Below are positions 7,851 through 58,353 of a stretch of DNA of 64,000 bases, piece after piece. Numbering within the stretch: position 1 is the first letter of the stretch; every line of letters starts with the position of its first letter. The notes below the pieces were generated by a model. The model saw nothing but the letters and a program-made list of their open reading frames with translations, had not been told where the DNA came from and made no database searches. Source of the stretch: Methanocaldococcus sp. 28A (GTDB lineage: Archaea; AGJL01; Methanococci; Methanococcales; Methanocaldococcaceae); the NCBI GenBank assembly GCA_049852185.1, contig CP187540.1. One strand, given 5' to 3'. The translations under genes and the position numbers were made by a program.

Positions 7851-8069
7851 ATGGCTGTTGAAATTATTGTAAATAAAGAAAAATGTATTGGATGTGGAAG
7901 ATGCTATGATGTATGCCCAAAAGGTCCTCTTATTTGGACAAAAGATGAAAATGGAAAATACTATGCTTATGATGTTGAATACTGCCACAACTGCAAGTTT
8001 TGTGCAGGTAGATGCCCAACAAATGCTATATTAATTAAAGTAGTTAAGCCAAAAAATAATAAAAATTAA
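7851..8069 (+). CDS. 2[4Fe-4S] ferredoxin
   Basis: Two CxxCxxCxxxCP motifs. Confidence 0.95.
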
Positions 8070-9259
8070 TTTATCTCAGCAAATACTTCATCAAATGCAT
8101 TAGTTAAGGCGTCAATATGCTCTTTTTCTACAATTAATGGTGGTAAAAATCTCAAAACTACATCAGAAGTGCAATTAATTAGAAATCCTTTCTCAAGCAT
8201 TTTTTTAACGATTTCAGCTCCATTAAATTCAAGTTCAGAACCAATCATTAAACCTAACCCTCTTACTTCTTTTATAAAGTTATACTTTTCCCTAAGAGTT
8301 TCGAGTTTTCGAATGAAATATTTTCCTTTTTCTATAACTTTATCATCTTTAATAAGCTCTTCTATAACCTCAATTGATGCTAATGCAGCTGAGCAAGCTA
8401 AAGGATTTCCACCAAAGGTTGTTCCATGGTCTCCATAACTTAAAGCATTTGCTATCTCTTCTTTTAAAACAACAGCCCCTATTGGAACTCCTCCTCCAAG
8501 AGCTTTTGCCAATGTTAAGATGTCTGGCTTTACATCATAATGCTCATAGGCAAACATCTTTCCAGTTCTTCCCATTCCACACTGCACTTCATCAAAGATT
8601 AAAATAATATTTTTATCATCACATAAATCTCTAACAGCTTTTAAATAATCTTTATCAGCAACATGAATTCCTCCCTCTCCTTGAACAGGTTCAATTATTA
8701 TAGCACATGTTTTGTTTGTTATACTTTCTTTCAACGCCTCTATATCATTGAAAGGCACGTATTTAAAACCTTGTGGTAATGGATGAAAGCCCTCTTGATA
8801 CTTTGGTTTTGGTGTTGCCGCCAATGTTGTTAAAGTTCTTCCATGGAATGCGTTATACATACTGATAATTTCTCCGCCATCTTTTCCTAATATTTTTGAT
8901 GCATACTTTCTTGCAAATTTTATGGCACCTTCATTTGCCTCAGCTCCGCTGTTGCAAAAAAATGCCTTATCTAAGCCACTTAACTCAACCAACTTTTTAG
9001 CTAATTTTATTTGTGGGATTGAGTAATATATGTTGGATGTATGGATTAATGTTTCAGCTTGGCTTTTTATAGCTTCAACAACCTTTGGATGACAATGACC
9101 TACATTATTAACTCCAATTCCTGATAAAAAGTCAAGATATTTTTTTCCATTGATATCATAAACCTCCATTCCTTTACCTTCAACTAAAACAACTGGTAAT
9201 CTTCCATAAATTTGGAGATGATATTTTTTTTCTAACTCTATAATTTCCTCTGTGTCCAT
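8066..9259 (-). CDS. argD: Acetylornithine aminotransferase
   Basis: SGAEANE, FHGRT, EPVQGEGG, DEVQ.G.GRTG, AKALGGG, HGTTFGGNP. Confidence 0.93.
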   Translation of the reverse strand: MDTEEIIELEKKYHLQIYGRLPVVLVEGKGMEVYDINGKKYLDFLSGIGVNNVGHCHPKVVEAIKSQAETLIHTSNIYYSIPQIKLAKKLVELSGLDKAFFCNSGAEANEGAIKFARKYASKILGKDGGEIISMYNAFHGRTLTTLAATPKPKYQEGFHPLPQGFKYVPFNDIEALKESITNKTCAIIIEPVQGEGGIHVADKDYLKAVRDLCDDKNIILIFDEVQCGMGRTGKMFAYEHYDVKPDILTLAKALGGGVPIGAVVLKEEIANALSYGDHGTTFGGNPLACSAALASIEVIEELIKDDKVIEKGKYFIRKLETLREKYNFIKEVRGLGLMIGSELEFNGAEIVKKMLEKGFLINCTSDVVLRFLPPLIVEKEHIDALTNAFDEVFAEIN

Positions 9260-43236: not shown

Positions 43237-44244
43237 ATGAAATTCTACGATAGAGAAAGAGAAGTAAATTTTTTAAAAACCTACTGCCAATTAGAGCCGA
43301 ATTCTATACTATTTGTTTATGGGCCAAAATCATCAGGTAAAACTACTGTAATGCTTAGGGTTATTGAAGAATTGTCTAAAAATGAGGATATTATTTTCTT
43401 TTATTACGATTTGAGGAGGTATGCAACACCTACAAAAGAAGAATTTTTAGAAATATTTTTTGAGAAATCAGATAAAAAATATTTACTAAATAGATTTGAG
43501 ATTAATCTAAAAATATGGAGATTTGGGGTTGAGGAAAAGTTTGATTTTAACAATATAAAGTTAAATGATGTGTTTGATAAGATTTATGAGGGCATTGAAG
43601 CAGTTATTAAAGATGGAAAAAAACCAGTTTTAATTATTGATGAGTTGCAGAAGTTGAAAAATATTTATTTTAATGGAGGTAAATCCTTATTAAATGAATT
43701 GTTTAATTTATTTGTTCATTTAACAAAAGTTAGGCACTTATGTCATGTAATTTGCTTAACTTCCGATACTTTGTTTATTGAAGAGATTTATAAGAACTCT
43801 ACATTGGAAAATACTTCTGAATATTTCTTAATTGATTGGTTGAGGAAAGGAACTATAAGGAATATTTTAAAAGAGGAGGGTTTTAGTGAAGAAGAGGTTA
43901 ATTATGCTTTAAATTATCTATCATTACCTTATGAGATTACTCAATTGATAAATAATAAAAAACTTGGGTTGAGTGTTGAAGAGACAATAAAAAAGTGGAT
44001 AAATATTGAAAAAGATAAAATAAAATACATAATAAGGAAAAATTTGGACAAAAAAGATGAAATCCTAAAAATACTATCAAAGTTTAAAGATAATATAAAA
44101 ATAAAAAATGATGAGATTGAGGATGAATTATTTGAGACATTAAAGATATTAATTGAGAATGAAATACTGTTTTATGATGTTATTAATGGGATAATTAAGC
44201 CAACATCTATAAAGAAGTGGTTTGCTATAAAGGATATAATCTAA
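43237..44244 (+). CDS. Archaeal (MJ-type) ATPase, copy 1
   Basis: MKFYDRE.E, Walker A YGPKSSGKTT, Walker B IIDELQ, LTSD. Confidence 0.9.
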   Translation: MKFYDREREVNFLKTYCQLEPNSILFVYGPKSSGKTTVMLRVIEELSKNEDIIFFYYDLRRYATPTKEEFLEIFFEKSDKKYLLNRFEINLKIWRFGVEEKFDFNNIKLNDVFDKIYEGIEAVIKDGKKPVLIIDELQKLKNIYFNGGKSLLNELFNLFVHLTKVRHLCHVICLTSDTLFIEEIYKNSTLENTSEYFLIDWLRKGTIRNILKEEGFSEEEVNYALNYLSLPYEITQLINNKKLGLSVEETIKKWINIEKDKIKYIIRKNLDKKDEILKILSKFKDNIKIKNDEIEDELFETLKILIENEILFYDVINGIIKPTSIKKWFAIKDII

Positions 44245-44282
44245 CAAATATTAAAATACATAAAAATAGAGTGGGTGGGTTT

Positions 44283-44729
44283 ATGAGTGAGGATATAATT
44301 GGAGCAACATTTCCAATACCTAAACCCTTAATAGGAAGAATATTAGATGAGCATAAAAATGTTTTTGTCAAGCCCGCAACATTAACCAAGCTTGAGAAAG
44401 GTATGAAAATTATATTTTATGCTTCAAGGGAGGAACAAGGATTTTATGGAGAGGCTGAGATTGAGAAAGTAGAGTTTTTTGAAAATCCAATGAAAATATT
44501 GGAAAAATATAAAGATGAGATGTTTTTAACTGAAGAGGAGTTTAAAGAATATATTGACTCCTCCAAAAAGTGGGGTTATGGTAGAAAAAAGAAAAAACCT
44601 TGGATGGTTATTGTTCTAAAGAATATTAAAAAGTATTCTAAGGTTGTTAAGCCAAAGAGGTTTATTACTGTTGGAGGGCGATATGTTAAAGAGAAAGAAT
44701 ATAAGGAAATTTTAAATAGAGCAATCTAA
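44283..44729 (+). CDS. DUF365-like PUA/ASCH-fold protein
   Basis: GATFPIPK..RI..KNVFVKP, IFYAS...GF.GEA.I, FLTEEE, ITVGGRY. Confidence 0.75.
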   Translation: MSEDIIGATFPIPKPLIGRILDEHKNVFVKPATLTKLEKGMKIIFYASREEQGFYGEAEIEKVEFFENPMKILEKYKDEMFLTEEEFKEYIDSSKKWGYGRKKKKPWMVIVLKNIKKYSKVVKPKRFITVGGRYVKEKEYKEILNRAI

Positions 44730-44820: not shown

Positions 44821-47800
44821 ATGGAGAGATTTATAGAGAATCCAAAGTTTCCAATAAGAGAAATTAATGAGAAGAGTGAAAAAGAGAAAGGTGCTGCAAG
44901 ACCTCCATATTGGGAAATGGTATTTTATTGGACAAGAAAACCATTAATTGGAGCAAGAGGAGTTATTGCTGGCTGTTTATTACCTTATGACATTGACTTA
45001 GAGAGATTTAAAAATGCTATAGCACTTAATGAAAAAACTCCTCACAGGGAAAGTCCAAAAATTCGTAATGATTGGAAGAAGTATTTTGAAGGTAAAAAGT
45101 TATTAGACCCATTTGCAGGTTTTGGTTCTATTCCATTGGAAGGGTTGAGATTAGGTTTAGATGTTACAGCAGTTGAGTTATTACCCACAACTTATGTATT
45201 TTTAAAAGCAGTTTTAGAATATCCAAAAAAGTTTGGTAAGACACTTATAAAAGATGTGGAAAAGTGGGGGAATTGGATAACTGAAAGATTGAAAGAAGAT
45301 GAAGATATAAAAGAACTTTATGATGAAGATATTGCTGTCTATATAGGAACTTGGGAGATAAAATGCCCACACTGTGGGAAATTTACCCCTGCAATAGGCA
45401 ATTATTGGTTAGCGAGAGTTAAAGACAGCAAAGGATACAAAAGATTGGCATATATGAAACCAGAGTTTAATGGGGAGAGTGTAAATATAAAAGTTATTGA
45501 TTTAAATGCAATTTTTGGTAGTGTTGAAAATGCAAAGGTGGATACTAAGAACAACACTATTGTTTTTGTTGGAGATAATTATATAGAGAAGGTTAAGAAG
45601 GCTGTAGAAAAGGGAATTTTAAAAGAGGGTGATTTTGTAATTGATGGTAATAAAGTTGTGTTTAAAGTTCCTTCTGCTAATATAGAATCAAGAAGAAGCC
45701 AATTAACATGTCTATGTTGTGGAAATATTATAAAATATGCAGATGAAGAGGGAAGGCATTACATTGACAGAAAGAAGGGGAATAATGAATTTTATGTAAA
45801 ATTTGCTTTAAAGAAATATCATTCTGGAGATGAAAATTATGCAAGGCAGAGGTTATTGGTTAAGGTTAAAATTAAAGAGAGGGATTTAACTTTTGAACCA
45901 TGCATTGAAGAAGATAACAATAAGTTGTTAATTGCCAAACAAAAGATTAATGAGTTGTTGAGTAATGGGGATGTTGATATTCCAACCGAATCTGTTGCTC
46001 CCTGGGGTTCAAAAGGAATGGGAGGAGATATTAAAACTATCACATGGGGATTAACAACGTGGGATAAACACTTTAATCCAAGGCAGTTATTGACATTGAT
46101 AAAAATAGTTAAACTAATTAGAGAAGTTGGTAAAAAAGTAGAGGAAGAGAAAATTAATGAAGGTTGGGATAAAGATAAAGCATTTGAGTATGCTGAGGCT
46201 ATTGCTACTTATTTGAGCATGGCTATGTTGAAATATGCTGATTATAGTTCAATTTCTACAAGGTGGAACTCATCTTTAATTATGGCTAATACATTATCTA
46301 CACGAGGTATAGCAATGGTTTGGAATTATTTTGAAATCTCACCATTTGCAAAATGGACTGGCTCATGGAGACAGGGAATTGAATATACAATTCCAAAATC
46401 CTTAGAATATCTTACTGATGCCATCTCACCTAAACAAAAAACTCTAACTGAAATAATAAAATCAAATTCAATAAATATTATACAAGGGGATGCTACTTCA
46501 TTAAACCTAAATGAAAAATTTGATATTATTGTTACCGACCCACCTTATGCTGATGATGTTCCTTATACAGAATTATCTGACTTTTATTATGTTTGGCTTA
46601 AAAGAGCTTTATCTGATGTTGAAAACAACAAGTTAATTCCAAGATTCCATAAAGATGCATTCTTTAAAAAAATAGGTAAAAAATACAAGGAGATAAAAAC
46701 CCAATGGCAGGAATTTGCTAAAAAAGAAGTATCTGAAAATGCTGGAAGATTTATGAATGAGGAAAATAAAAAAGAACTTGCTAAAAAACACTTTGAAAAT
46801 CTCTTCTCTCAAGCATTTATATCTATGAGAAACCATTTAAAAGATGATGGGATTTTAGTAACCTATTATGCCCACACAAACCCAGAATCATGGGCAAATC
46901 TCTTAGAGGCTGGCTGGAAGAGAGCAAAACTAACAATAACAAGAGCCCTACCTTTAACAACTGAATCAAAGCAAAACATTGTATCAAGAGGCAAACTATC
47001 CTTAGATACTTCCATAATTGCCATCTGGAAAAAGAAAACTCTAAAAGATAAAACTTTAATCTCTACCCTAATACCAAAATTAAGAGAGAAAGGAAGAGAG
47101 ACAGCAGAGTTGTTAATAAAACATGGACAGCATGATTTAGATTTATTATATGGTGTAATGGCTGGTATATTAGAAGAGATAACCCAATACAATGAAATTG
47201 TTAGTCCAGAAGGAAAATTAACAACAAAAGATATCCTTGATAAATATGTTTATCCATTAACAATATACAGCATTATAGATGCAATTTCAAAAGAAAAAGA
47301 GGGGGCCTTGAAAATTACTACAAAACCAGCCCTCTTCTATACCACTTACAAAATCCTATTTGGTAGTAAAACATTGGGAAGTGGTGATTTAATCTTATTA
47401 AATATTTCAACAGGAATTGATGCTAAAAAGGCTGTTGAATATAATCTAATAAAAGAAGAGAGTAAAGGATTTGTCTTAAACTCTCCTGACTTAATAAAAG
47501 AACTTAATGAAAAATATCTCTACCAGTTTTTAATTGAGAAAGACATAAATCCAACAAATCCAGAAATAAAAACATCAATAGATATATTGCATTTGCTTGA
47601 ATACTATGCCTTTGCTTATGCAATAGATGCATTCAAATCTAAACTTGAAGAATTGAAAAGTAAATACCCAACAGAAACTGAAGAAGCAATAAATATTGCC
47701 AAACTAATAAACAAATATTATGCAAGTGTATTTAAAGAAATATACGCAGGCAAAAAAGACAGTGAGATTGATAAACTACTCCAAAAAGATAAAATTTATG

Positions 47801-47853
47801 AAATCTATCTAATAAGAAGATTAGTAAGATTCTTAGAAGGAAAAGCATTTTAA
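44821..47853 (+). CDS. DUF1156/COG1743 DNA N6-adenine methyltransferase with Zn ribbon
   Basis: YWTRKPL N-terminus, SAM motif DPFAGFGSIP, CPHC...CLCC, FNPRQL, catalytic TDPPY, ELSDFYYVWLKR. Confidence 0.9.
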   Translation: MERFIENPKFPIREINEKSEKEKGAARPPYWEMVFYWTRKPLIGARGVIAGCLLPYDIDLERFKNAIALNEKTPHRESPKIRNDWKKYFEGKKLLDPFAGFGSIPLEGLRLGLDVTAVELLPTTYVFLKAVLEYPKKFGKTLIKDVEKWGNWITERLKEDEDIKELYDEDIAVYIGTWEIKCPHCGKFTPAIGNYWLARVKDSKGYKRLAYMKPEFNGESVNIKVIDLNAIFGSVENAKVDTKNNTIVFVGDNYIEKVKKAVEKGILKEGDFVIDGNKVVFKVPSANIESRRSQLTCLCCGNIIKYADEEGRHYIDRKKGNNEFYVKFALKKYHSGDENYARQRLLVKVKIKERDLTFEPCIEEDNNKLLIAKQKINELLSNGDVDIPTESVAPWGSKGMGGDIKTITWGLTTWDKHFNPRQLLTLIKIVKLIREVGKKVEEEKINEGWDKDKAFEYAEAIATYLSMAMLKYADYSSISTRWNSSLIMANTLSTRGIAMVWNYFEISPFAKWTGSWRQGIEYTIPKSLEYLTDAISPKQKTLTEIIKSNSINIIQGDATSLNLNEKFDIIVTDPPYADDVPYTELSDFYYVWLKRALSDVENNKLIPRFHKDAFFKKIGKKYKEIKTQWQEFAKKEVSENAGRFMNEENKKELAKKHFENLFSQAFISMRNHLKDDGILVTYYAHTNPESWANLLEAGWKRAKLTITRALPLTTESKQNIVSRGKLSLDTSIIAIWKKKTLKDKTLISTLIPKLREKGRETAELLIKHGQHDLDLLYGVMAGILEEITQYNEIVSPEGKLTTKDILDKYVYPLTIYSIIDAISKEKEGALKITTKPALFYTTYKILFGSKTLGSGDLILLNISTGIDAKKAVEYNLIKEESKGFVLNSPDLIKELNEKYLYQFLIEKDINPTNPEIKTSIDILHLLEYYAFAYAIDAFKSKLEELKSKYPTETEEAINIAKLINKYYASVFKEIYAGKKDSEIDKLLQKDKIYEIYLIRRLVRFLEGKAF

Positions 47854-47876
47854 ATTTAAACTTTTGAGGGATAAAA

Positions 47877-48464
47877 ATGTCTAATTATCTAAAAGGAATA
47901 TTTGAAGATTTGGAACCAGAGGAAAAAATCATCCTCTATGCATTGGGAGCTTTAAACAACACTCCCTTAAATAGCAAAATAAAACTCCATAAATTGTTAT
48001 TCTTAGTTTCTAATGTATTTCCGCAACTAAATGAATTACTTGAATTTGAAGAACACTTTTTAGGTCCTTACAGTGAAAAAATAAACTATATCCTCGACGA
48101 TTTAATTAGTTTGGGATTGGTAGAAAAAAAAGGTAGCAAATACAAACTTACTGAAAAAGGAATGGAGATATATAAACGACTAAAACCAAAACCAGGACTA
48201 AAAGAGGTCTTAGAAGATTTTAAAGAATTTATACACGATTTAACAGATGATGAAATATTGGCATTTATCTATGTCTCATATCCAAAATATACCAAAGAAT
48301 CTATAAAGTGGGATGAATTGAAAAAACAAAGAGTTGATTTAGCCATCTCATTACTAAAAAAACAAAAAATTAGTTTTGGAAAAGCTGCACAAATAGCTGG
48401 ACTCTCTCCTATGGAATTTGAAGAATTGCTTTTAAAAAGAGGGATAAAGTGGAGGGGAATATAA
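47877..48464 (+). CDS. Putative antitoxin: N-terminal wHTH (SocA/YwgA-like) fused to a C-terminal UPF0175 HTH
   Basis: KLHKLLFL...F....GPYS; C-terminal ISFGKAAQIAGLS..EF..LL.KRGI. Confidence 0.7.
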   Translation: MSNYLKGIFEDLEPEEKIILYALGALNNTPLNSKIKLHKLLFLVSNVFPQLNELLEFEEHFLGPYSEKINYILDDLISLGLVEKKGSKYKLTEKGMEIYKRLKPKPGLKEVLEDFKEFIHDLTDDEILAFIYVSYPKYTKESIKWDELKKQRVDLAISLLKKQKISFGKAAQIAGLSPMEFEELLLKRGIKWRGI

Positions 48465-49027
48465 CGGTCAAAATTCTTGATAATACAGTAATAAGTGCAA
48501 GTTTAAAAGAAATAAAAACCATTAACCTCATAGAAAGATGTTTAAAAAGATATAAATTAGTTACATCAGAATATGTATTTGTAGAGACATTAAAAGGATT
48601 TTCAAATCCTACAATCGAAAATTGCTATTCAGATATTGAAGTCCATGAAATTAATGAAGAAATGTTTAATTTTCTTTTAGATTACTTAGAAAGGAGATTC
48701 CCATATTTACACAGAGGAGAACTTTCATCCTTCTTAGTGGCTTTATTAAAATATGCTGAAAATGGTAAATCATATTACTATGTAACAGACGACCGTAGAA
48801 TGAGAGATACAATCTCTAAAATTTTAAATGACCCGATAGTAAAATCAAAATTAAAAAATCCTATAACTCCAGAAAATTTTAACCTAACAGGGACTATTGG
48901 GCTTCTTTTAAGATTAAAATATAGGGGATTAATATCAAAAGAGGAAGCTAAAAAGATTGCAGATGATTTAGAAAACAGTTCTTTTAGAGTAACTCCTGAA
49001 CTATTAAAAAAATTGAGAGAGGATTGA
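48449..49027 (+). CDS. PIN-domain (VapC/DUF3368-like) ribonuclease toxin
   Basis: ILDNTVI, V..E, LHRGE.S, VTDDR, GTIGLL; overlaps the antitoxin stop. Confidence 0.8.
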   Translation: MEGNITVKILDNTVISASLKEIKTINLIERCLKRYKLVTSEYVFVETLKGFSNPTIENCYSDIEVHEINEEMFNFLLDYLERRFPYLHRGELSSFLVALLKYAENGKSYYYVTDDRRMRDTISKILNDPIVKSKLKNPITPENFNLTGTIGLLLRLKYRGLISKEEAKKIADDLENSSFRVTPELLKKLRED

Positions 49028-49028
49028 T

Positions 49029-50126
49029 ATGGGCAAGCTGAAAGTTCATATAAACTCTATAGATGAAAATTTAATGTTTAGAAGCTTGGATATAAAGGTA
49101 GGTTCTAAAACAATGGCAACCACTCCAATAAAAGTTAGCCCTCCAGAACACCCAATAAGTCCTATAAATGAGGTATATAAAAAATTTTCTATTGATAAAT
49201 TGAAAAAATGCAATATTGACAACTCTATAGAAACAAAGACAAACCAGGAAATAAGAAAATGTTTAATAGCAGATAAGTTAAATATGGTTATTGTTGATTA
49301 TACCTCTGATATTTTACCTAAAAAAGAACACTTAGAAGTTTTAATGGATTTGCAATATAATGGAGATGTTGTTATAACTCCAATTTTCTCTAAACTCGTA
49401 AAAACTCTTAAAGAGGAAAAACTAAAAAATACATTCATTAAATTAACAAATCAATGTATAGAAATAGCAAATACCTTAAATAATAAAACTATAGTTGGAA
49501 TAATCCCAGCAAAGATGCCAAGACAATTTATTGAGGATATTATAAAAAACTATGTTGATAAAAATATAACTCATTACATTATAGACCTTGATAGGAGAAC
49601 TATCTCAGCGAATACTTCTTGGATTATAAAGTTATTTAGAACTATCCATGATAATGGAATTCTTGATGAAACTTTGTTATATTGTGTTAATGGTAGTGAA
49701 GGTAAATTCTTAAAAAATGCTGAGGTAATCCCTGCTCATGATTTTATAAATTCTGGTTTTGGAATTGATATATTAGGTTTGAAACATGTCCCTCCTCAAT
49801 TACCTCCAGAAGTATGGGCAAAATTAAAAAATATAAAAAAGGAAGAAATTTATAGAATATTTAATAGAAATACTTATGGTTATCATAAAGTAAATGTGGA
49901 GATTCTCCAAAATTTGGGACTATTTCCTAACCAAAATACTGTAAAAATCTATAATATAGAAAAACAGTTTGATGAAGCCATTTATTTACAAAACCTTCTT
50001 AAGGAAGAATCAACCGTAGAGCAATATGTGTCATCAAAATCTCAAATGAAAGATATAATTCCAGAAATCAAAAAAGTTAAACATGAAGTTAAAGAAAAAT
50101 CAATGAAACTTGATTTTTTCCTATAA
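49029..50126 (+). CDS. Divergent TGT (tRNA-guanine transglycosylase)-like TIM-barrel protein
   Basis: N-terminal D...R..I......TP pattern, LQ..GDVVITP, IVGIIP, FGIDILG. No Cys/His zinc site. Fold is inferred. Confidence 0.5.
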   Translation: MGKLKVHINSIDENLMFRSLDIKVGSKTMATTPIKVSPPEHPISPINEVYKKFSIDKLKKCNIDNSIETKTNQEIRKCLIADKLNMVIVDYTSDILPKKEHLEVLMDLQYNGDVVITPIFSKLVKTLKEEKLKNTFIKLTNQCIEIANTLNNKTIVGIIPAKMPRQFIEDIIKNYVDKNITHYIIDLDRRTISANTSWIIKLFRTIHDNGILDETLLYCVNGSEGKFLKNAEVIPAHDFINSGFGIDILGLKHVPPQLPPEVWAKLKNIKKEEIYRIFNRNTYGYHKVNVEILQNLGLFPNQNTVKIYNIEKQFDEAIYLQNLLKEESTVEQYVSSKSQMKDIIPEIKKVKHEVKEKSMKLDFFL

Positions 50127-50207
50127 ATAAGTTGATAATTAATATATAGACTTGGATTTGCTTATTCCATGGTGATAAAATGAAATTCTACTAACTTGGT
50201 GAATATT

Positions 50208-51227
50208 ATGAAATTCTACGATAGAGAGAAAGAAGTTAAATATTTAAAAACTTACTGCCAGTTAGAGCCAAACTCTATATTATTCGTCTATGGACCAAAA
50301 TCTTCTGGCAAAACTACTGTAATGCTTAGAGTTATAGAAGAACTAAACAAAAGGGATGATATAATATTCTTCTACTACGATTTAAGGGAATATGCGACAC
50401 CAACAAAAGAAGAGTTTTTAAGTATATTCTTTGAAAAATCAGACAAAAAATATCTTTTAAATAAATTAGAAATCGATTTAAAAATATTTAAATTTGGAGT
50501 AGAAGAGAATTTTGATTTTAATAATTTATCATTAAATGATGTTTTTAATAAAATAAAAGAAAGCATCAAAGAGGTTGTTAAAGAAGGTAAAAAACCTATA
50601 TTGGTTATTGATGAATTGCAGAAATTAAAGAGCATCTATTTCAATGGTGGTAAATCCTTACTAAATGAGTTATTTAATCTATTTGTCCATCTAACAAAAG
50701 TTAGGCATCTATGTCATGTTATTTGTTTAACCTCTGATACTTTGTTTATTGAGGAGATTTATAAGAACTCTACATTAGAGAATACTTCTGAATATTTTTT
50801 AATTGATTGGTTAAATATAGATGATATTAAAAACATTCTAAAAGAAGAGGGTTTTAGTGAAGAAGAGGTTAATTATGCTTTGAATTATATATCATTACCT
50901 TATGAAATCTCACAATTAATAAATAATAAAAAATTAGGTTTATCTGTTGAAGAAGCAATAAAGCAGTGGATTAATATTGAGAGAGATAAAATTTTATATT
51001 TAATATCAACTCAAAAGGAATTTGAGATGAAAAATTTAGAAAATGCTCTGAAATTATTTGAAGATAAAATAAAAGTTGATATCAAAGAGATAATAAAAAA
51101 CAATCTTATGGATGAGGTTAAATTTTTGATAAAAAATGAGATTTTATTTTATGATGTAATAAATGGCATAATTAAGCCAACTTCTGTAAAAAAATGGTTT
51201 GCTATTAAAGAAATAATTATGGGTTAA
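50208..51227 (+). CDS. Archaeal (MJ-type) ATPase, copy 2
   Basis: Close paralog of 43237-44244 with the same Walker motifs; ATG after GGTGA. Confidence 0.9.
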   Translation: MKFYDREKEVKYLKTYCQLEPNSILFVYGPKSSGKTTVMLRVIEELNKRDDIIFFYYDLREYATPTKEEFLSIFFEKSDKKYLLNKLEIDLKIFKFGVEENFDFNNLSLNDVFNKIKESIKEVVKEGKKPILVIDELQKLKSIYFNGGKSLLNELFNLFVHLTKVRHLCHVICLTSDTLFIEEIYKNSTLENTSEYFLIDWLNIDDIKNILKEEGFSEEEVNYALNYISLPYEISQLINNKKLGLSVEEAIKQWINIERDKILYLISTQKEFEMKNLENALKLFEDKIKVDIKEIIKNNLMDEVKFLIKNEILFYDVINGIIKPTSVKKWFAIKEIIMG

Positions 51228-51289
51228 AAGCCTCTAACTTAATGCATTCAGTATTCGAATAAGCATTTGACGCATAGATTGACGAAGTC

Positions 51290-51397
51290 TTGGGGTATCC
51301 CGAACCATAGGGCTAATGCCCTATTGGTATGAACCTTTTAGAAAAAGGTTCATCAAAAAATTTTGGGGTATACCAATAGGGGCGAAGCCCCTAATGG
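51290..51397. repeat. Family C hairpin cluster
   Basis: ATAGGGC-TAAT-GCCCTAT, ATGAACCTTTT-AGA-AAAAGGTTCAT, TGGGGTATACCAA-TAGGGGC-GAA-GCCCCTA (inverse of the 43149-43180 unit). Confidence 0.8.
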
Positions 51398-51431
51398 TAA
51401 TGAAATAATCTAAAAAGTGGAGGGGAGAAAA

Positions 51432-54400
51432 ATGCAAAAATTAAAAGTTTGGGAGGATGTTTTAGATGAGACATTAGATATGCAGGTAGCTCCTGAATTG
51501 GGAGATGTTGTAAATAAAACTGCTCACAAAATTTATACTGAACCAGAGGAATTCTTTAAAAGAACTTACTTTACTGATTCCATGGTTCAAATACTTGATA
51601 GGCTATTAAATACCTTAAGTGGGGATGAAAGACACAATATATTCTTAATATATTCTCTTTTTGGGGGAGGGAAGACACATACAATATTAACCATATACCA
51701 TGCAGTTAATAATCCTGATTCACTTACAAATGAAAATATTCTAAAAGATTATCCTGAAGATAAAAAAGAGAAAATAAAAAGTATTGGAATAAAATTAAAA
51801 GACTTTCAAAATCAAAACATAAAAATACTTCCAATATATGGTAAAGGAAGCTTAGGGCAACCAAGTAATCCATTAAACTTCGGTGCTTATGAAGTTAAAA
51901 CCTTATGGGGCTATATAGGACATTACTTAGGAAAGTATGCACTTGTTGAAAAATATGATAAAAACTTAACAGTTCCTCCAATAGACACAATTAGAGAACT
52001 TTTAAAAGGAAATAAAGTTGTGTTTTTAGTTGATGAAATTGTTCATTATATTGATAATTTATACAATAGTGGAAATGAAGATGATAGGAGATACGCAAAA
52101 AATATCTGTAAGTTTTTTGACGCTTTATCAACTGCATTAATTGGAACTGATAGTATAATGATTCTAACCTTACCAATGGAAAAAGATGGGGAAAAAGTTG
52201 AAAAAGGGTATAATAAGGAGATAGTTCTTTCACTTCATAGAGCAGTTGAGAGAGTCGGGGGAGCAGAACTTTACTCACCACTAAGAACCGAAGGAATTTC
52301 AGGTGGAGAAATTGTTGAAATTTTAAAAAAGAGAATTTTTGAAGACATAGACAAAGATTTTAAAGAGAAGATTATTGAAAAATATAGAGAAGCTTATTCA
52401 AACACTGATATATTTGGTAGATTTGAAAATAATTTATCAAAAACATATCCTTTTCATCCAGATTATATAGCAACGCTTAGAACTATAGTTGAAAGAGGGA
52501 ACTTGCAGAAAACAAGGGATATGGTTAGAATAACAAGAATTGTTATAAGAAACTTATTACAAGAAGAAGAGTTTCCTACCTTAATAATGCCATATCATAT
52601 AAATCCAAGAAATGAAAAACTAAAAGGGATATTGTTTGGAAAAAATCAAACATTTGCTGATTATGGAGGAGCTGTATTAGATGTAGATTTATCTCTTGAA
52701 AAATTTAAAAGATTTTCAAAACCAGAATTGGCAGAAATTATTTTGAGATACATATTCTTAAAAACCTATCCTTATGATTCTCCAATACCACTTGAAGGAT
52801 TCCCAAAAAAAGATAGTATTGCAAGGGCAGTTTATGAAATCAATTTCTTTGAAAGATATGCATTGCAATTAACTGATATTCCAAACACAATAAGTGAAAT
52901 TGAAAAAAGCTCATCATTCATATATTTAAACAAAAAAGATGGAATCTTCTGGTTTTGGAGAGTTGCAAATGTATCTCAAATGGTTGAAAGTAAAAAAGAT
53001 GAATTACTCTCCCTCCATATAATTGGTGTTTATAGAAAACTTGAAGAATTTGTTAAGAGGCATGTAGGAGGAAAAGGATTAAAAACCAAAAAAATTGAAG
53101 AGAATAAAATAACATTTTTTAAAAAGAATAATATTGTAGTATCAAGAGACGCACAAGAGTTCCAAGATGATGAAGATTATAAATTGCAAATACTCATAAG
53201 AGATGATGTTGATAAATCTACACTTTATAGAATAATTTATCAGTATGGGACTGGAACAAGAACATATAGAAATACAATAACTGTTTGTTATGCTGATAAA
53301 TCCCTAAACAAATTGCTTGAAATAACTGCTCGTATAATGGCATGTGAGAAAGTAAAAGACGATATTAAAGCAAAATATAAATCTTATGGAGAGGAGGTTG
53401 TTCAAATACAATCAAATATGGTAAGGACTATTGAAGATGATGCAAAAGCAGAATTTGATGAATCTGTAGCCAGCATATTTAAAAAAGTTGCATATCCTAA
53501 AGATAATGATGTGGAAATTGTTGATGCTACTCCAACATCCAAGTCAATACTTGAAAATGTATATTCAACACTTGTTGAATGGGGAAAAATTCCATCAAGT
53601 CTAACTTTTGAAGGTCTTGAATATTATTTAAATGAGGTAAATATATCCTTTGATAAACCAATTTATTTTTCAGAACTTAGAAGTATTATTAGAACTAATA
53701 CAAAACTTCCATTTATTACTGATGAACAATTAAAAGAAGTGATAAAAGAAGGAGTTGAAGACCTAAAAATTGGTATTGAGAGAGATGGAAGAGTTTTATT
53801 TAAAAGAATCTATCAAAATGTTCCTAATCATAATGAATCTGGAGTTCCTCTCAATGACATAAAAGAAAATGATATAATCTTGCCTCAAATAATGGCATTA
53901 AACAAACAAATAAACCAGATTTTAAAAGAAGAAAAGGATGAAGTTGTTGATAATAAGTATAAAAAGGTTTGGTATGAGGTTTATATTTCAGATTCTGAAT
54001 CATTGCCACTAAGAGAACTCGTTGAAGAAACAGAAGATGGCTTTATTGTTAAATCTGAGTTTGTAGATTTAGTAATAAATGGATATATAGTAAGAAAGAG
54101 TGAAGAGAAGATTATTGGAGAAAGAAATGAGTTTTCTTTGAAATTGGATAGACATAATATTGAAGGAAAACCAGGAGAAGATGTAGATGTAAAAGTAATA
54201 ATAACACCGTTAAAAGGCAATGATTTTGAAGTGAATATTGAAGTTGAAGAAGGGATATTAGATTTAACACATGGAAAGGTTCCTTATGAAACAATTTGGC
54301 ATATAAAAATTCCTGAATCTAAAAAAACTTATGAGATAAAAGCAATATCTGAAGATGGTGTAGTAAAAACTGATAAAATAACCATCACTCCAAGAACTGA

Positions 54401-54746
54401 TATTGTAGATGTTCATGAATTATCTGAAAACTTAAAAGGAGGAAAATTATTAGAAATAAAGGGAATTAAATCCTATGATGATTTATGTATGATTCCTGAA
54501 AACTTAAATGTCAAAGTTAGAGGAAACTTTATTATTGAAAATGATGAATACTTTAAAGCAGATTTCAATAATCTACCTCTTGATGTTGTAAAATATATTA
54601 TTGAAGAGATAGAAGGAGTTATAGAACATAAGGCAAAGTTAGACGTAGATATTATTTTTACAGAAGAGATAAAAATTGATGACTTAATATTTGAGAAACT
54701 TAGATGCTTAAATAAAAAAGTAGTATTTAAAATTAAAAAATGCTGA
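51432..54746 (+). CDS. DUF499/COG1483 AAA+ ATPase with beta-rich C-terminal domains
   Basis: FF.RTY.T, Walker A FGGGKTH, TLWG, Walker B FLVDE, IL.KRIF, YPFHP, Q.TR. Confidence 0.88.
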   Translation: MQKLKVWEDVLDETLDMQVAPELGDVVNKTAHKIYTEPEEFFKRTYFTDSMVQILDRLLNTLSGDERHNIFLIYSLFGGGKTHTILTIYHAVNNPDSLTNENILKDYPEDKKEKIKSIGIKLKDFQNQNIKILPIYGKGSLGQPSNPLNFGAYEVKTLWGYIGHYLGKYALVEKYDKNLTVPPIDTIRELLKGNKVVFLVDEIVHYIDNLYNSGNEDDRRYAKNICKFFDALSTALIGTDSIMILTLPMEKDGEKVEKGYNKEIVLSLHRAVERVGGAELYSPLRTEGISGGEIVEILKKRIFEDIDKDFKEKIIEKYREAYSNTDIFGRFENNLSKTYPFHPDYIATLRTIVERGNLQKTRDMVRITRIVIRNLLQEEEFPTLIMPYHINPRNEKLKGILFGKNQTFADYGGAVLDVDLSLEKFKRFSKPELAEIILRYIFLKTYPYDSPIPLEGFPKKDSIARAVYEINFFERYALQLTDIPNTISEIEKSSSFIYLNKKDGIFWFWRVANVSQMVESKKDELLSLHIIGVYRKLEEFVKRHVGGKGLKTKKIEENKITFFKKNNIVVSRDAQEFQDDEDYKLQILIRDDVDKSTLYRIIYQYGTGTRTYRNTITVCYADKSLNKLLEITARIMACEKVKDDIKAKYKSYGEEVVQIQSNMVRTIEDDAKAEFDESVASIFKKVAYPKDNDVEIVDATPTSKSILENVYSTLVEWGKIPSSLTFEGLEYYLNEVNISFDKPIYFSELRSIIRTNTKLPFITDEQLKEVIKEGVEDLKIGIERDGRVLFKRIYQNVPNHNESGVPLNDIKENDIILPQIMALNKQINQILKEEKDEVVDNKYKKVWYEVYISDSESLPLRELVEETEDGFIVKSEFVDLVINGYIVRKSEEKIIGERNEFSLKLDRHNIEGKPGEDVDVKVIITPLKGNDFEVNIEVEEGILDLTHGKVPYETIWHIKIPESKKTYEIKAISEDGVVKTDKITITPRTDIVDVHELSENLKGGKLLEIKGIKSYDDLCMIPENLNVKVRGNFIIENDEYFKADFNNLPLDVVKYIIEEIEGVIEHKAKLDVDIIFTEEIKIDDLIFEKLRCLNKKVVFKIKKC

Positions 54747-54826: not shown

Positions 54827-55282
54827 GTGAAAGGAAATACTCAATATATGGTTAAACTTAGATATATTAAGCCTATAAAATTGCCAATTGTAAAAGAACA
54901 AAAATTAGCAGAATTTATTCCTATAATTCCTCTTGAGGACAACAAATACATAAAAGGTAAAATTGAAGGAGTTGCGAGAGTATTTCTTCCAGAGTTTATT
55001 AATTTCGCTAAACACCTTGGATTTGAAGTTTCTGGTAAAAAGAGGATAACATTAAAAACTGATGATGATTATGCATATCTAAAATTGTTTGTCTATGCCA
55101 TGGTTATGCAAGCATTAAAAGATAATACAATGTGGGGAAAGTTAGAAGACCACATTCTTTCTATGGAACCTCTATCCTTACGTTATTGGGCATCAACTTT
55201 TAGAAGTAGATATTGGGAATATAATAATAGAAGAAAATTATTAAAAATAGCAAAATGTTTTTTGGAAGTTGAAGAACTTTAA
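54827..55282 (+). CDS. Small accessory protein in the position usually held by DUF3780
   Basis: GAGGTGA ribosome-binding site; M....L.YW motif; lies between the DUF499 ATPase and the helicase. Confidence 0.6.
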   Translation: MKGNTQYMVKLRYIKPIKLPIVKEQKLAEFIPIIPLEDNKYIKGKIEGVARVFLPEFINFAKHLGFEVSGKKRITLKTDDDYAYLKLFVYAMVMQALKDNTMWGKLEDHILSMEPLSLRYWASTFRSRYWEYNNRRKLLKIAKCFLEVEEL

Positions 55283-55353: not shown

Positions 55354-58353
55354 TTGCAAAATAAAATAAAAAACTATCTCATAAAAAAGATATTTTTGCA
55401 TGACCCATTACTATTTTTCTATGCTTTAAATCATCCTGCATCAAAAAAACAAATAAAGCCATTTATACACCAAATTTATCTCCTATACAATGCTATGCTT
55501 CTTCGTCCAGTCCGTTTTTTAATTGCAGATGAGATTGGCTTAGGTAAAACAATAGAATCTCTTACAATAGCAAGATATTTAGAACTAAAAGATGGGATAA
55601 AAAAGATTTTAGTTTTAACTCCAAAAATTTTAAGAGAGCAGTGGGTTTCAGAAATAAAAAGAGTTGGAGGAATTCCAAGGATTGTTAAAAATGGGAATGA
55701 TATAAATAATATTAAAAGTTTTTTACAGTATTATGATTCTGCAGTTTATATTATAATCTCAATAGACCTTGCAAAAAGGTATGTTGATAAAATATTGCAA
55801 ATTGATTGGGACTTAGTTATTGTTGATGAAGCCCATAACATTACCAAAAATACTCAAAGGGGAAAATTAGTAGAAAAACTTTCAAAAAAAGTAAGAAATA
55901 TGCTTTTACTTTCCGCAACTCCACACAGAGGAGACCATCAAGATTATCTATATAGATTAAAGATTTTAGATTACACACTTATAAATGATTTTGACAAATT
56001 AAATACTCAAAATTTCTATCGTAAGACTCATGACATATTAGTTTTTAGAAGGACAAAAAAATTAGTAAATGCCCTTGAGAATAAAAAAGTCTTTAAAGAT
56101 TGCCAGTTTAATGCAGTAGTAGTGGATATATCAGAAGAGGAAAAAATATTTTTTAACCTTCTTGAAAATACTCTTAAAAATATACTGAAAAATACAAAAA
56201 AGAGTTCTCCAATAGCTCTTTTAGCAGTGATTTTAGGTAAGAGGGCATCTTCAAGTTATAAAGCAGCAATTGAAACACTGAATAGGATTATAAAAAGTAG
56301 CATTTTAAAAACTGATGATATTGATGTGTCAGAAGATATTCAAAACCTCTTCTCATTAAGTTTTGAAGAAATAGAATTTGAAGATTATAGAGAAGTATCT
56401 GACATAATAAATAATATTGTTGATAAATATTCACCCTATTTAAGCCAAGAACAAAAAGAATTATTTGAAAATCTCCTTAAAACAACAACTAACATTATAG
56501 TTAAAAAAGATAGTAAAATTGATGCTTTAGCAAAAATTATTGCAGAACATATTGAAAATAATGAGAAAATTGTAGTATTTACTGAATATGTTGATACTCT
56601 CAAATATCTTCAAGAAAATCTGCCTAAGTATCTAAATAACTATGGTGTTAAAATAGACACAAATGAAATATTAACACTTTCAGGAGAGGACAAAAATAGG
56701 ATGGAGAATATTACTGAGGAGATTAATAAAAAATTTGGGGATTATGGAAAAATTTTACTGGCAACAGATGTCGCTTCTGAAGGTCTTAATTTACAAATTG
56801 CAAGTGTCCTAATAAATTATGACTCCCCATGGAGTCCTATAAAATTAGAGCAAAGAATTGGTAGGGTTTGGAGGTTAGGGCAAGAAAAGGACGTGTCTAT
56901 TTATAATATTTTCCTTTCAAATAGAATGGACTTGGAACTACTCAATAACCTTTATAAAAAAATTATGAATATTAAAACTGCACTTGATAATCAATTAGCA
57001 ATAGGTAAGGAGATATATATTGCAAATGCTGAAAATCTATTTAACTTAGAAGAATTCGCATACATAAAAAACTTGTCCGAGTATGATATTATAATTTCAG
57101 CAATAATTGGAGAGTTAGGCAGTTATACAGAAGAAATTGTCAAAACTCTAAAAGTTATTAGAAATAAGCTAAAAATAATGGGTATTTTTCCAGAAGAACG
57201 TGCTGAAGAAATAAAAAAGGAAGTTTTAAATGTTATCCAAAACGAAAATTATTTAGAGATTGAAAAGGTTGAAGAAATTTTGAGGGACTATCATGATAAA
57301 GTCTTAAATGACAAAATAAATACCCAAAATATGTGGTATCAAATCATAAAATCAAAAAATGATAAAGATTTACAAATATCAAGAATTGTTATAAAGAATC
57401 AATTTAAAAATAGGGAATATTTGTTTTTTGTAAAGATATTAAATGAAGATAATGAGATTGTTTGGGAAATTCCATTGATGGTCTCTTATCAAAAAAAAAT
57501 TAAGTTAATGACAAGTGTTGAATTGTTAAAATACTTAACAACAATCTTTAGCAAAGATTTATTTTTCACAGAATACATAGAAAAACCTAATGAAAAGCAA
57601 GTATTGGCTATTAAAGGAAATGTCCTTACTTATGCCAGAAGTATTGTAAGTAACATAAATAAAAGAATTTCAAATTACGAAAATCTCATGGATTCAGGTT
57701 TAAAAGATGATAAATTATTTAAGAATTTGAAAATAAGTGTTAGTAATCCTATAATTATTGATTATCTGCCAGAGAAGGAATTTTCAATTGGAAAAGTTAT
57801 TCCTTTAGATATTGTGGATAATTTAGATAGAGATAATATTATTTTACCAGATGAAAATGATTTAAAGGTAATAAATAGGAATTTTCTGCCCCTTGAAGAA
57901 CTTGTGAAAATTGAAAAATTGGCTATGAATGTTATAATGAATCTCGAAGAACAAAGATTAGCAAGTAAATATGGATATGAAAATAAAGGTAAGATTTGGG
58001 ATGTTTTAGATGTCTCTCTACATGAGCATTATGATATAAAAGTTATTGAAAATGGAGAGGAGAAGTATATTGAAGTAAAAGGTCATAAGGGATTATTACC
58101 AATTGCAGAACTTACAGAGGCGGAATACAGATTTGCCATGGAAAATAAAGATAAATACTACCTATATATTGTTTGTAATATTGGGGAAGATGGGAAAAAT
58201 GCTATAATATTTGAGATTCATAATCCTTTAGACAATGAAAATAGAAAAGTTTATTTAATTAGAGATGGGGAAAAAATAGATATAAGCAAACACTATAAAA
58301 ATACTAACATCGTTGAAAGAAAAAGATATCTCCTAAAATTGGGACAAAAATAG
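55354..58353 (+). CDS. SWI2/SNF2 helicase fused to a DUF3883 (PD-(D/E)XK) nuclease
   Basis: HQ, ADEIGLGKT, DEAH, SATP, FRRTK, VFTEY, SEGLNLQ, EQRIGRV.R.GQ; C-terminal YDI...IEVKG....LT..E. Confidence 0.92.
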   Translation: MQNKIKNYLIKKIFLHDPLLFFYALNHPASKKQIKPFIHQIYLLYNAMLLRPVRFLIADEIGLGKTIESLTIARYLELKDGIKKILVLTPKILREQWVSEIKRVGGIPRIVKNGNDINNIKSFLQYYDSAVYIIISIDLAKRYVDKILQIDWDLVIVDEAHNITKNTQRGKLVEKLSKKVRNMLLLSATPHRGDHQDYLYRLKILDYTLINDFDKLNTQNFYRKTHDILVFRRTKKLVNALENKKVFKDCQFNAVVVDISEEEKIFFNLLENTLKNILKNTKKSSPIALLAVILGKRASSSYKAAIETLNRIIKSSILKTDDIDVSEDIQNLFSLSFEEIEFEDYREVSDIINNIVDKYSPYLSQEQKELFENLLKTTTNIIVKKDSKIDALAKIIAEHIENNEKIVVFTEYVDTLKYLQENLPKYLNNYGVKIDTNEILTLSGEDKNRMENITEEINKKFGDYGKILLATDVASEGLNLQIASVLINYDSPWSPIKLEQRIGRVWRLGQEKDVSIYNIFLSNRMDLELLNNLYKKIMNIKTALDNQLAIGKEIYIANAENLFNLEEFAYIKNLSEYDIIISAIIGELGSYTEEIVKTLKVIRNKLKIMGIFPEERAEEIKKEVLNVIQNENYLEIEKVEEILRDYHDKVLNDKINTQNMWYQIIKSKNDKDLQISRIVIKNQFKNREYLFFVKILNEDNEIVWEIPLMVSYQKKIKLMTSVELLKYLTTIFSKDLFFTEYIEKPNEKQVLAIKGNVLTYARSIVSNINKRISNYENLMDSGLKDDKLFKNLKISVSNPIIIDYLPEKEFSIGKVIPLDIVDNLDRDNIILPDENDLKVINRNFLPLEELVKIEKLAMNVIMNLEEQRLASKYGYENKGKIWDVLDVSLHEHYDIKVIENGEEKYIEVKGHKGLLPIAELTEAEYRFAMENKDKYYLYIVCNIGEDGKNAIIFEIHNPLDNENRKVYLIRDGEKIDISKHYKNTNIVERKRYLLKLGQK

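Follow-up and report, generated by a model that had tools for sequence, protein, structure and literature searches.

The window analysed here, a 64,000-nucleotide (nt) stretch of the archaeon Methanocaldococcus sp. 28A (contig CP187540.1 of assembly GCA_049852185.1), carries at positions 47,877 to 50,126 a cassette of three genes, A, B and C, which we read, at a probability of about 0.58, as a composite toxin-antitoxin (TA) or abortive-infection cassette with one double antitoxin (A) and two effectors (B and C). The reading draws on the domain composition of the proteins, the predicted fold of C, the recurrence of the genes side by side in archaea and bacteria, and a predicted A-C complex. As taken from the listing of open reading frames (ORFs) and from reading of the sequence, the three genes are:

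47877-48464, plus strand: gene A, 195 amino acids (aa), ATG start
48449-49027, plus strand: gene B, 192 aa, GTG start
49029-50126, plus strand: gene C, 365 aa, ATG start

A preliminary description of the window, made from its letters alone, had pointed to three tightly coupled ORFs, and its coordinates and spacings all agree with the ORF listing: gene A starts 23 nt past the stop of an upstream DUF1156 methyltransferase ORF (1010 aa), the last 16 nt of gene A are shared with gene B, and a 1-nt gap separates B from C. A GAGG/GAGGG motif, seen on reading the sequence, precedes the start of each gene, and the GTG start of B is backed by the consensus N-terminus of its homologues. The GC content of the cassette (0.28-0.30) is the same as that of its surroundings, with no anomaly of composition, and the host genome holds no second copy of gene A or gene C, and for B the one further match is marginal.

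The domain composition of A places two antitoxin-type modules in one protein. In Pfam, residues 143-192 match UPF0175 with 46 bits (cut-off 27.9, E = 4.4e-12) and residues 70-103 match the winged helix-turn-helix (wHTH) family HTH_45 (E = 5.9e-6), and PADLOC matches PDC-M19A (E = 2.1e-12) and DarG (E = 2e-6). The protein carries an F..GPYS motif in which G63, P64 and S66 are invariant among 17 homologues, and a profile of these 17 sequences found in the PDB both the wHTH protein Sso10a (E = 3e-5) and the DarG C-terminal domain (7yk3_B, E = 6e-5), the latter over the K-L-Q-K-L...G-P-Y-S-E region. When residues 15-144 were aligned by hhalign with 13 standalone archaeal proteins, the match reached a probability of 99.5% (E = 1.2e-22), and PF13274 (SocA_Panacea) was found in eight of these 13 at E<1e-3, in three of them above the 25.7-bit cut-off. 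Judged by these profile matches, A appears to be a Panacea/SocA-like (DarG C-terminal-like) domain, covering residues ~15-144 and including the winged helix, fused to UPF0175. The UPF0175 part, a winged helix and the F..GPYS motif, all named in the preliminary description, were thus recovered, and what it had called a wHTH appears instead to be a domain of the Panacea/SocA type, that is, a toxin-neutralising one. The DarG C-terminal domain is reported to sequester the toxin DarT (PMC7003065), and Panacea antitoxins are reported to neutralise many unrelated toxins through direct binding (PMC8832971).

Relatives of this N-terminal domain are also found alone. The gene A profile matched 34 of 151 haloarchaeal genomes, by the N-domain only in 25 and by the UPF0175 part only in nine, and the N-domain-only matches are standalone proteins of ~150-200 aa. 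Among 14 standalone proteins scanned, seven match SocA_Panacea (E<1e-3) and seven adjoin a DUF6338 gene; a TrmB-like gene adjoins two of the 14 examined (loci L129-L146). Those beside DUF6338 or TrmB-like genes are possible archaeal pairs of the PanAT type, and if the assignment is true, Panacea-type antitoxins would be common in archaea.

B is, by its sequence matches, a COG2405/DUF3368 PIN-like nuclease and the putative toxin partner of the UPF0175 domain of A. Its residues 147-189 match Pfam DUF3368 with 40.5 bits (cut-off 27.3, E = 2.5e-10), a family that corresponds to the C-terminal part of COG2405 PIN-like proteins, and PADLOC gives PDC-S70 (E = 1.4e-5). Among 14 homologues the acidic residues E46, E91, D114 and D115 never vary and D11 is kept in at least 90%, in line with the earlier claim of a PIN nuclease with its acidic residues in place, and the Atlas model of B aligns with PIN/DUF3368 clusters at TM 0.69-0.92, normalised by query. 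A profile search of the PDB with B gave nothing significant (best E = 0.44), and PHROGs gave no match. UPF0175 has been reported 'exclusively in the context of COG2405' (PMC5499597), the two forming a predicted TA pair (PMC5499597, PMC2701414). Genes A and B have the features of such a pair, with both models above their cut-offs, co-directional and overlapping genes, and the PIN acids kept; they differ from it in that UPF0175 is here the C-terminal third of a 195-aa fusion, that a third gene is constantly present, and that the PIN gene is dispensable in some relatives.

C belongs to a family that the domain collections do not describe. It has no match in Pfam, PADLOC or PHROGs, and its one NCBIfam match, to Fic, stays below threshold (16.9 of the required 230 bits, E = 0.0038). 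A word search of a 5.8-billion-protein collection returned 14 family members, none with a precomputed Pfam domain, and an exhaustive HMMER search of 1.84 billion cluster representatives returned 292 at E<=0.001, 156 at E<=1e-10 and 32 at E<=1e-30; Atlas clusters of the family are 90-100% archaeal. The structure of C was modelled from a 135-sequence alignment (20-88% identity) with a mean predicted local distance difference test score (pLDDT) of 96.2 and a predicted TM-score (pTM) of 0.93, and this model superseded an earlier one built from 14 sequences (pLDDT 67.9). Foldseek comparison of the model with the PDB placed tRNA-guanine transglycosylases (TGTs) in all of the top 49 positions, from E = 1.3e-7 at TM ~0.55, with 7ovo_C first. 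VIA, a structure aligner independent of Foldseek and the source of all Z scores given here for C, returned:

Archaeosine TGT, 1iq8_A: Z 20.5 (root-mean-square deviation 3.9, 299 residues aligned)
Bacterial TGT, 3unt_A: Z 20.4
QTRT2, 6fv5_A: Z 17.8
Cap10, 9ntn_B: Z 15.3
DpdA, 7ui4_A: Z 13.7, fifth in rank
GH5 and other generic TIM barrels: Z <=12.1

The match to TGTs runs over the full length, with 286-299 residues aligned across the first three, and the model thereby confirms the earlier suggestion that C is a TIM barrel of the TGT-superfamily fold. At the level of sequence the kinship is hardly visible. PF01702, the TGT family, finds no match in C; in the host genome it finds an archaeosine TGT (E = 4.2e-94) and a weak second site, neither of which is C. 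Sequence-profile searches of the PDB gave no match with the 14-row alignment and four chance-level matches with the 135-row alignment (best E = 0.078), no TGT among them, and the identity of C to solved TGTs is 9-11%. A fold search of BFVD with C gave one match at E<=0.001, at a TM of 0.30 only.

The absence of a zinc site, also part of the preliminary description, is borne out by the 135-sequence alignment, in which no column reaches 30% Cys and H253 (90%) is the sole conserved His. The other conserved polar residues are E48 (98%), D113 (87%), K153 (88%), D186 (94%), N221 (100%), D238 (96%), D247 (96%) and K337 (97%), and C looks like an enzyme because N221 is fully conserved and E48, D186, D238, D247 and K337 are conserved at 94-98%. 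When C was aligned by hhalign with TGTs of Methanococcales only, a local C-terminal match was obtained (E = 0.014); a diverse archaeal and bacterial TGT set gave a collinear but weak alignment (E = 0.0034, probability 9%). This weak alignment pairs T32-P33 of C with the TGT 'TP', 'I-x-G157' with 'I-Q-G', Y218...N221 with 'H-L-F-G', G245-x-D247-x-x-G250 with 'G-x-D-x-F-D', and Y308-N309 with the zinc-His 'H-N'; it sets the TGT nucleophile Asp opposite Gly250 of C (97% Gly) and no conserved acid of C opposite the two base-reading Asp residues. C also shares motif anchors with TGTs, namely TP after the N-terminal sheet, SD...P, G-x-D on strand 8 and (H/Y)-N...E in the C-terminal helix. On these alignments the canonical TGT catalytic set has likely been lost in C, and the conserved polar set suggests a working pocket of a different kind.

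To follow the three genes in other genomes, HMMs (hidden Markov models) of A, B and C were run on six-frame ORFs at 40 loci with C (14 from genomes, 25 from metagenomes and one in relative G022), found with the 14-row C alignment, by which distant relatives are under-sampled in this context survey. With at least 1.2 kb of sequence upstream of C, 27 of the 40 loci were informative. A adjoins C in all 27, in archaea and bacteria alike, and B adjoins C in 25, in one of them weakly. A-B-C is collinear in 22 (four with identical proteins; L003 and L004 are close kin, with B frameshifted in L004), A-B is encoded on the strand opposite C, in divergent or convergent orientation, in L015 and L113, A stands with a weak B (E = 3.1e-5) in L116, and A alone, with no B, accompanies C in L014 and L072. 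The 13 shorter loci comprise six with B directly upstream of C, six that start inside or at C, and L110, in which 511 nt upstream of C gave no match. The hosts, by record titles, are Methanococci, Altiarchaeales, Thermoplasmata, Methanosarcinales, Hodarchaeota, Halobacteriales, Gammaproteobacteria and Clostridia, and the grouping exceeds chance, since the triplet recurs in 22 further loci of different phyla. The linkage of C homologues to A and PIN genes elsewhere that the preliminary description envisaged is therefore found, with one change of emphasis: it had taken the UPF0175-PIN pair as the core, and the constant pair is A and C, with B usual but dispensable.

The distribution of C is sporadic. 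Clear matches occur in four of 40 Methanococcales genomes, namely the host itself, G008 (88% identity), G015 and G022 (30%), and full-length C in five of 151 haloarchaeal genomes, where a sixth match is a fragment; two of these five have a divergent full-length A and one a standalone Panacea-like gene 0.9 kb off. C was found in none of 149 candidate stretches of viral contigs. Integrase, resolvase, IS200 or conjugation genes lie close by in L010, L096, L106, L005, L111 and L093. As separate observations on G022 (L072), a second, free-standing SocA_Panacea gene (7889-8323, E = 1.8e-18) lies directly downstream of the B-less A-C pair, and an unannotated 1145-aa ORF lies upstream of it.

A predicted complex of A and C gives the arrangement a possible physical form. 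Co-folding scored 0.86 (0.83, 0.86 and 0.86 in the individual runs) against 0.00 in the best of three controls; of 80 solved complexes 58 attained the co-fold mark, as did two of 110 mismatched pairs, and the inputs here were our own alignments (17 rows for A, 45 for C), so this calibration counts only roughly. The runs share at least 90% of contacts, with partner pLDDT of at least 88. The interface on A comprises residues 4-108 and 140-143, that is, the N-domain, the UPF0175 domain being nearly free of contacts, and on C it comprises the loops after strands 4-8 (125-132, 162-166, 190-198, 226-231 and 258-266) and the tail 360-365. By the secondary structure of the model, these loops form the catalytic face of the barrel, and the prediction supports a capping of this face by the A N-domain.

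In the composite reading, two pairs would have joined into an autonomous, horizontally mobile TA-like cassette. A would act as a single bifunctional antitoxin, its Panacea/SocA-like N-domain binding C and covering the face of beta-alpha loops, its UPF0175 domain neutralising B, which belongs to its usual PIN-like type of partner. B would be a PIN-like RNase, presumably toxic when free, and C a TGT-derived second effector acting on nucleic acid or nucleotide by a chemistry other than TGT base exchange. Were A lost, degraded or titrated, for instance during infection, both effectors would be freed and growth would stop; the cassette would land preferentially in defence loci beside DNA methyltransferase genes. 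The preliminary description had cast C as a controller of the PIN RNase; because the N-domain of A is of a toxin-neutralising type, C is more probably a second toxin. A bolder extension, unlikely as a whole, would make C a new class of TGT-derived defence effector, capped by the Panacea-like domain and freed on infection, possibly when the neighbouring restriction-modification (R-M) or BREX (bacteriophage exclusion)-related system is disabled, which would damage tRNA or DNA by base cleavage or exchange through a non-TGT catalytic set (E48, D186, N221, D238, D247 and H253), beside a PIN RNase under the same double antitoxin.

Several observations weigh against the composite reading. PF13274 is absent from the Pfam families listed for the 17 gene A homologues, and the Panacea assignment of the N-domain is transitive, made by sequence through the standalone proteins. 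Of the three proteins A varies least, with 51-63% identity to collinear homologues against 33-47% for C, which is unusual for an antitoxin. In the haloarchaea G143 and G107, two of the five with full-length C, no A lies within 1.5 kb and C adjoins Cdc6-like and integrase-type genes, and C is thus not always under the control of A. The residue register between C and TGTs is weak and D247 lies three residues before the aligned nucleophile position, so the loss of the Asp is uncertain. Finally, the co-fold score expresses the confidence of a model, and a functional A-C holoenzyme would score like sequestration.

The surroundings of the cassette bear on whether it acts on its own. Its neighbours in the window are:

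44217-44729: DUF365 protein (Pfam E = 5.6e-45), encoded between the first ATPase_2 gene, whose end it overlaps, and the methyltransferase directly downstream
44821-47853, plus strand: DUF1156 N6-adenine DNA methyltransferase (Pfam DUF1156; PADLOC MTase_II, E = 0, and HmaB; NCBIfam DUF1156_antiphage)
50196-51227, plus strand: ATPase_2 protein, archaeal, MJ1010-like (Pfam E = 1.6e-55), context of the cassette and a second optional insert of the locus
51417-54746, plus strand: DUF499 ATPase (Pfam E = 5.7e-292; PADLOC HmaC)
54827-55282, plus strand: 151-aa ORF between DUF499 and the helicase, with no family
55354-58353, plus strand: SNF2 helicase with a NOV_C domain (Pfam SNF2-rel_dom, Helicase_C and NOV_C; PADLOC HmaA/DrmD)

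The methyltransferase, DUF499 and helicase genes make this an Hma or BREX-related type-1 defence locus, and the preliminary description had already placed the cassette within a DNA-methylation defence locus; NCBIfam labels two of its proteins 'anti-phage-associated', at sub-threshold scores, and this gene set is termed 'Type-1 BREX-related' in a 2026 survey (PMC12839542). Close orthologues of the methyltransferase occur in five Methanococcales genomes, the host included, and the gene order in relatives, with gene content determined by tblastn, is:

G016: methyltransferase, ATPase_2, DUF499, 151-aa ORF, helicase; no cassette
G012: methyltransferase, DUF499, 151-aa ORF, helicase; no cassette and no ATPase_2
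G024: methyltransferase, DUF499, helicase; no cassette
G008: cassette intact
G015: methyltransferase intact; downstream of it, frameshifts or a stop disrupt every one of A, B, C and ATPase_2

Comparison of positions 47001-51500 of the window by blastn with the loci of G016 (L069), G012 (L070) and G015 (L071) placed the edges of the insert. Against G016, homology stops at 47865 and resumes at 50197, leaving a cassette-specific block of ~2.33 kb (47866-50196); against G012, it stops at 47856 and resumes at 51398, and the missing block (47857-51397) comprises the cassette and ATPase_2. In G015, DUF499 and the helicase are missing within the 19 kb examined, and this locus is a decaying copy. The absence of the cassette from the orthologous loci of G016, G012 and G024, together with the pseudogenes of G015, marks it as an accessory, separately acquired insert, and it is not a core part of the Hma or BREX-related methylation system.

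Elsewhere the cassette is found in a variety of settings. Flanks were scanned at 31 loci, 28 of them non-redundant, and R-M or BREX-related components lie beside or around the cassette in 12 of the 28, a descriptive count. The cassette stands between the DUF1156 methyltransferase and DUF499 in the window and L002, between an SNF2/NOV_C helicase and the DUF1156 methyltransferase in L012/L105, L100, L099 and L111, between hsdR and hsdS-hsdM in L095, before hsdS in L098, after type III Mod-Res, with conjugation genes adjacent, in L093, before Eco57I/MmeI-type or N6_N4 methyltransferases in L005, L009 and L015, and beside an HsdM fragment and RhuM in L007. Other neighbours are KwaB (L094), HEPN-MNT (L113) and integrases (L010, L096 and L106), and housekeeping genes flank it in L003/L004, L097 and L109. 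A 617-aa HEAT-repeat protein was also seen in L095 (2617-4470), between hsdR and the cassette and inside the type I R-M operon.

These settings raise the prospect of a guard resembling PrrC, in which the cassette would be coupled to the adjacent methyltransferase/helicase complex and fire, through the PIN RNase, C or both, when a virus inhibits that complex; a guard of this complex was also one option of the preliminary description. Such a guard overlaps and is compatible with the composite TA reading, from which it differs in its trigger, the state of the neighbouring system; we consider it somewhat unlikely. Precedents exist in PrrC of EcoprrI, which a type I R-M enzyme linked to it keeps silent and which an anti-restriction factor of the phage switches on (PMC2610378, PMC3874168), and in RNases of the PIN, HEPN and Schlafen kinds, which have been listed as 'backup suicidal effectors' within BREX and BREX-related loci (PMC12839542), and the 12 loci with R-M or BREX-related neighbours share with EcoprrI the lodging of an RNase-bearing module inside such operons. 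Yet the partner systems span at least four unrelated R-M classes, which speaks against a specific contact between proteins, the scanned flanks of 16 of the 28 loci, some of them housekeeping genes, hold no R-M component, the neighbour count is descriptive, being set against no background rate, and the methyltransferase of G015 is intact while its cassette has decayed. The cassette also differs from EcoprrI in having no ABC-ATPase anticodon nuclease and in bringing its own antitoxin. A different role for C, as a non-catalytic, QTRT2-like subunit that binds nucleic acid (tRNA) and targets the nuclease B while A keeps the pair inactive, would suit its closeness to QTRT2 (Z 17.8, with 7ovo_C as the top Foldseek match), the missing zinc site, the nucleophile and base-reading Asp residues that are not kept on the best alignment, and the translational coupling of B and C, 1 nt apart. 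It is quite improbable, as C occurs with A and no detectable B in L014 and L072 and with a weak B in L116, its polar residues are conserved at 94-100%, as in active sites, and the partner predicted on its catalytic face is A.

The existence of A-C pairs without B speaks likewise against C as a sensor of a small molecule or nucleobase, or as a modifier of A or B, that regulates a classic UPF0175-PIN pair, and so does the known toxin-neutralising type of the domain of A that would bind C. A conserved pocket within a TGT-type barrel, the predicted A-C contact over that pocket and the example of Cap10, in which a reshaped TGT fold acts on a partner protein (bioRxiv 10.1101/2025.04.06.647259), would be consistent with such a regulator, and we hold it to be very improbable all the same. 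The least credible of the readings makes C a DpdA-like DNA (or tRNA) transglycosylase that inserts 7-deazaguanine derivatives for the methylation defence locus. It has in its favour the TGT-superfamily fold, with DpdA (7ui4_A, Z 13.7) among the matches, and the position of the cassette in a DNA-modification defence locus. DpdA, however, ranks below the tRNA TGTs, QTRT2 and Cap10, PF01702 misses C, C is constantly accompanied by a protein of the antitoxin type, and in three relatives the host locus does without the cassette. The exchange of modified guanines by C, one option of the preliminary description, is further opposed by the missing zinc site, by Gly250 at the nucleophile position and the unconserved base-reading Asp positions, a low-confidence alignment, and by the absence of any DpdB, DpdC or QueC-type gene among the 15 neighbouring ORFs scanned.

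The composite TA reading sets the cassette among several known systems without making it identical to any. It resembles PanAT in that the N-domain of A is homologous to Panacea-positive proteins, a partner gene (C) is constantly adjacent, a complex of the two is predicted, and the distribution is mobile and sporadic; it differs in that PF13274 misses A, that A has a second antitoxin domain and the cassette two candidate toxins, and that a TGT-fold partner goes unmentioned in the main text of PMC8832971, where neither 'TGT' nor 'transglycosylase' occurs. With DarTG it shares the match to the DarG C-terminal domain, a two-domain antitoxin and a toxin that acts, or in the case of C would act, on nucleic acid, but it has neither a macrodomain nor the DarT ADP-ribosyltransferase, and the partner is a TIM barrel. 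Unlike the TGTs proper (bacterial, archaeosine and QTRT1/QTRT2), C is linked to an antitoxin, in a genome that has its own archaeosine TGT elsewhere. DpdA is a DNA preQ0 insertase with DpdB and DpdC as partners, and it and Cap10, of the type IV cyclic oligonucleotide-based antiphage signalling system (CBASS), resemble C as TGT-derived barrels recruited to an anti-virus locus. In Cap10 both the catalytic Asp (D248) and the residues that read the nucleobase are kept, and its partners are the QueC-like Cap9 and a CD-NTase (bioRxiv 10.1101/2025.04.06.647259); none of Cap9, CD-NTase, DpdB and DpdC is present at the cassette. A literature search found no description of the A-B-C triad, with the supplementary datasets of PMC8832971 and PMC12839542, which may list it, lying outside that search.

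The new side of the cassette is the candidate effector fold, and otherwise it is a variant of PanAT and UPF0175-PIN. If the composite reading is true, a TGT-derived barrel would join the toxin and effector folds of TA and anti-virus systems, and A would be a naturally occurring fusion of a Panacea-like with a UPF0175 antitoxin domain that controls two different effectors. The repeated lodging of the cassette in R-M or BREX-related operons of several classes would likewise offer a tractable case for telling backup layers from hitch-hikers.

Some further features of the host locus were noted at and around the site of insertion. The two ATPase_2 paralogues (43237-44244 and 50196-51227), with 79% protein identity and ~80% DNA identity, form direct repeats 6971 nt apart that flank DUF365, the methyltransferase and A-B-C, and a 22-nt copy of the ATPase_2 5' end (~50171-50192) lies just past the stop of gene C; the true start of the second ATPase_2 copy is probably the ATG at 50208. 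The place of the cassette in G016 (L069 6044-6402) holds a 54-nt fragment of the ATPase_2 5' end and ~300 nt of hairpin-rich sequence, followed by a full ATPase_2; this stretch could represent a short mobile repeat that uses the same hot spot. The 151-aa ORF at 54827-55282 has no match in Pfam, PADLOC, NCBIfam or PHROGs and is 91-93% conserved in G016 and G012.

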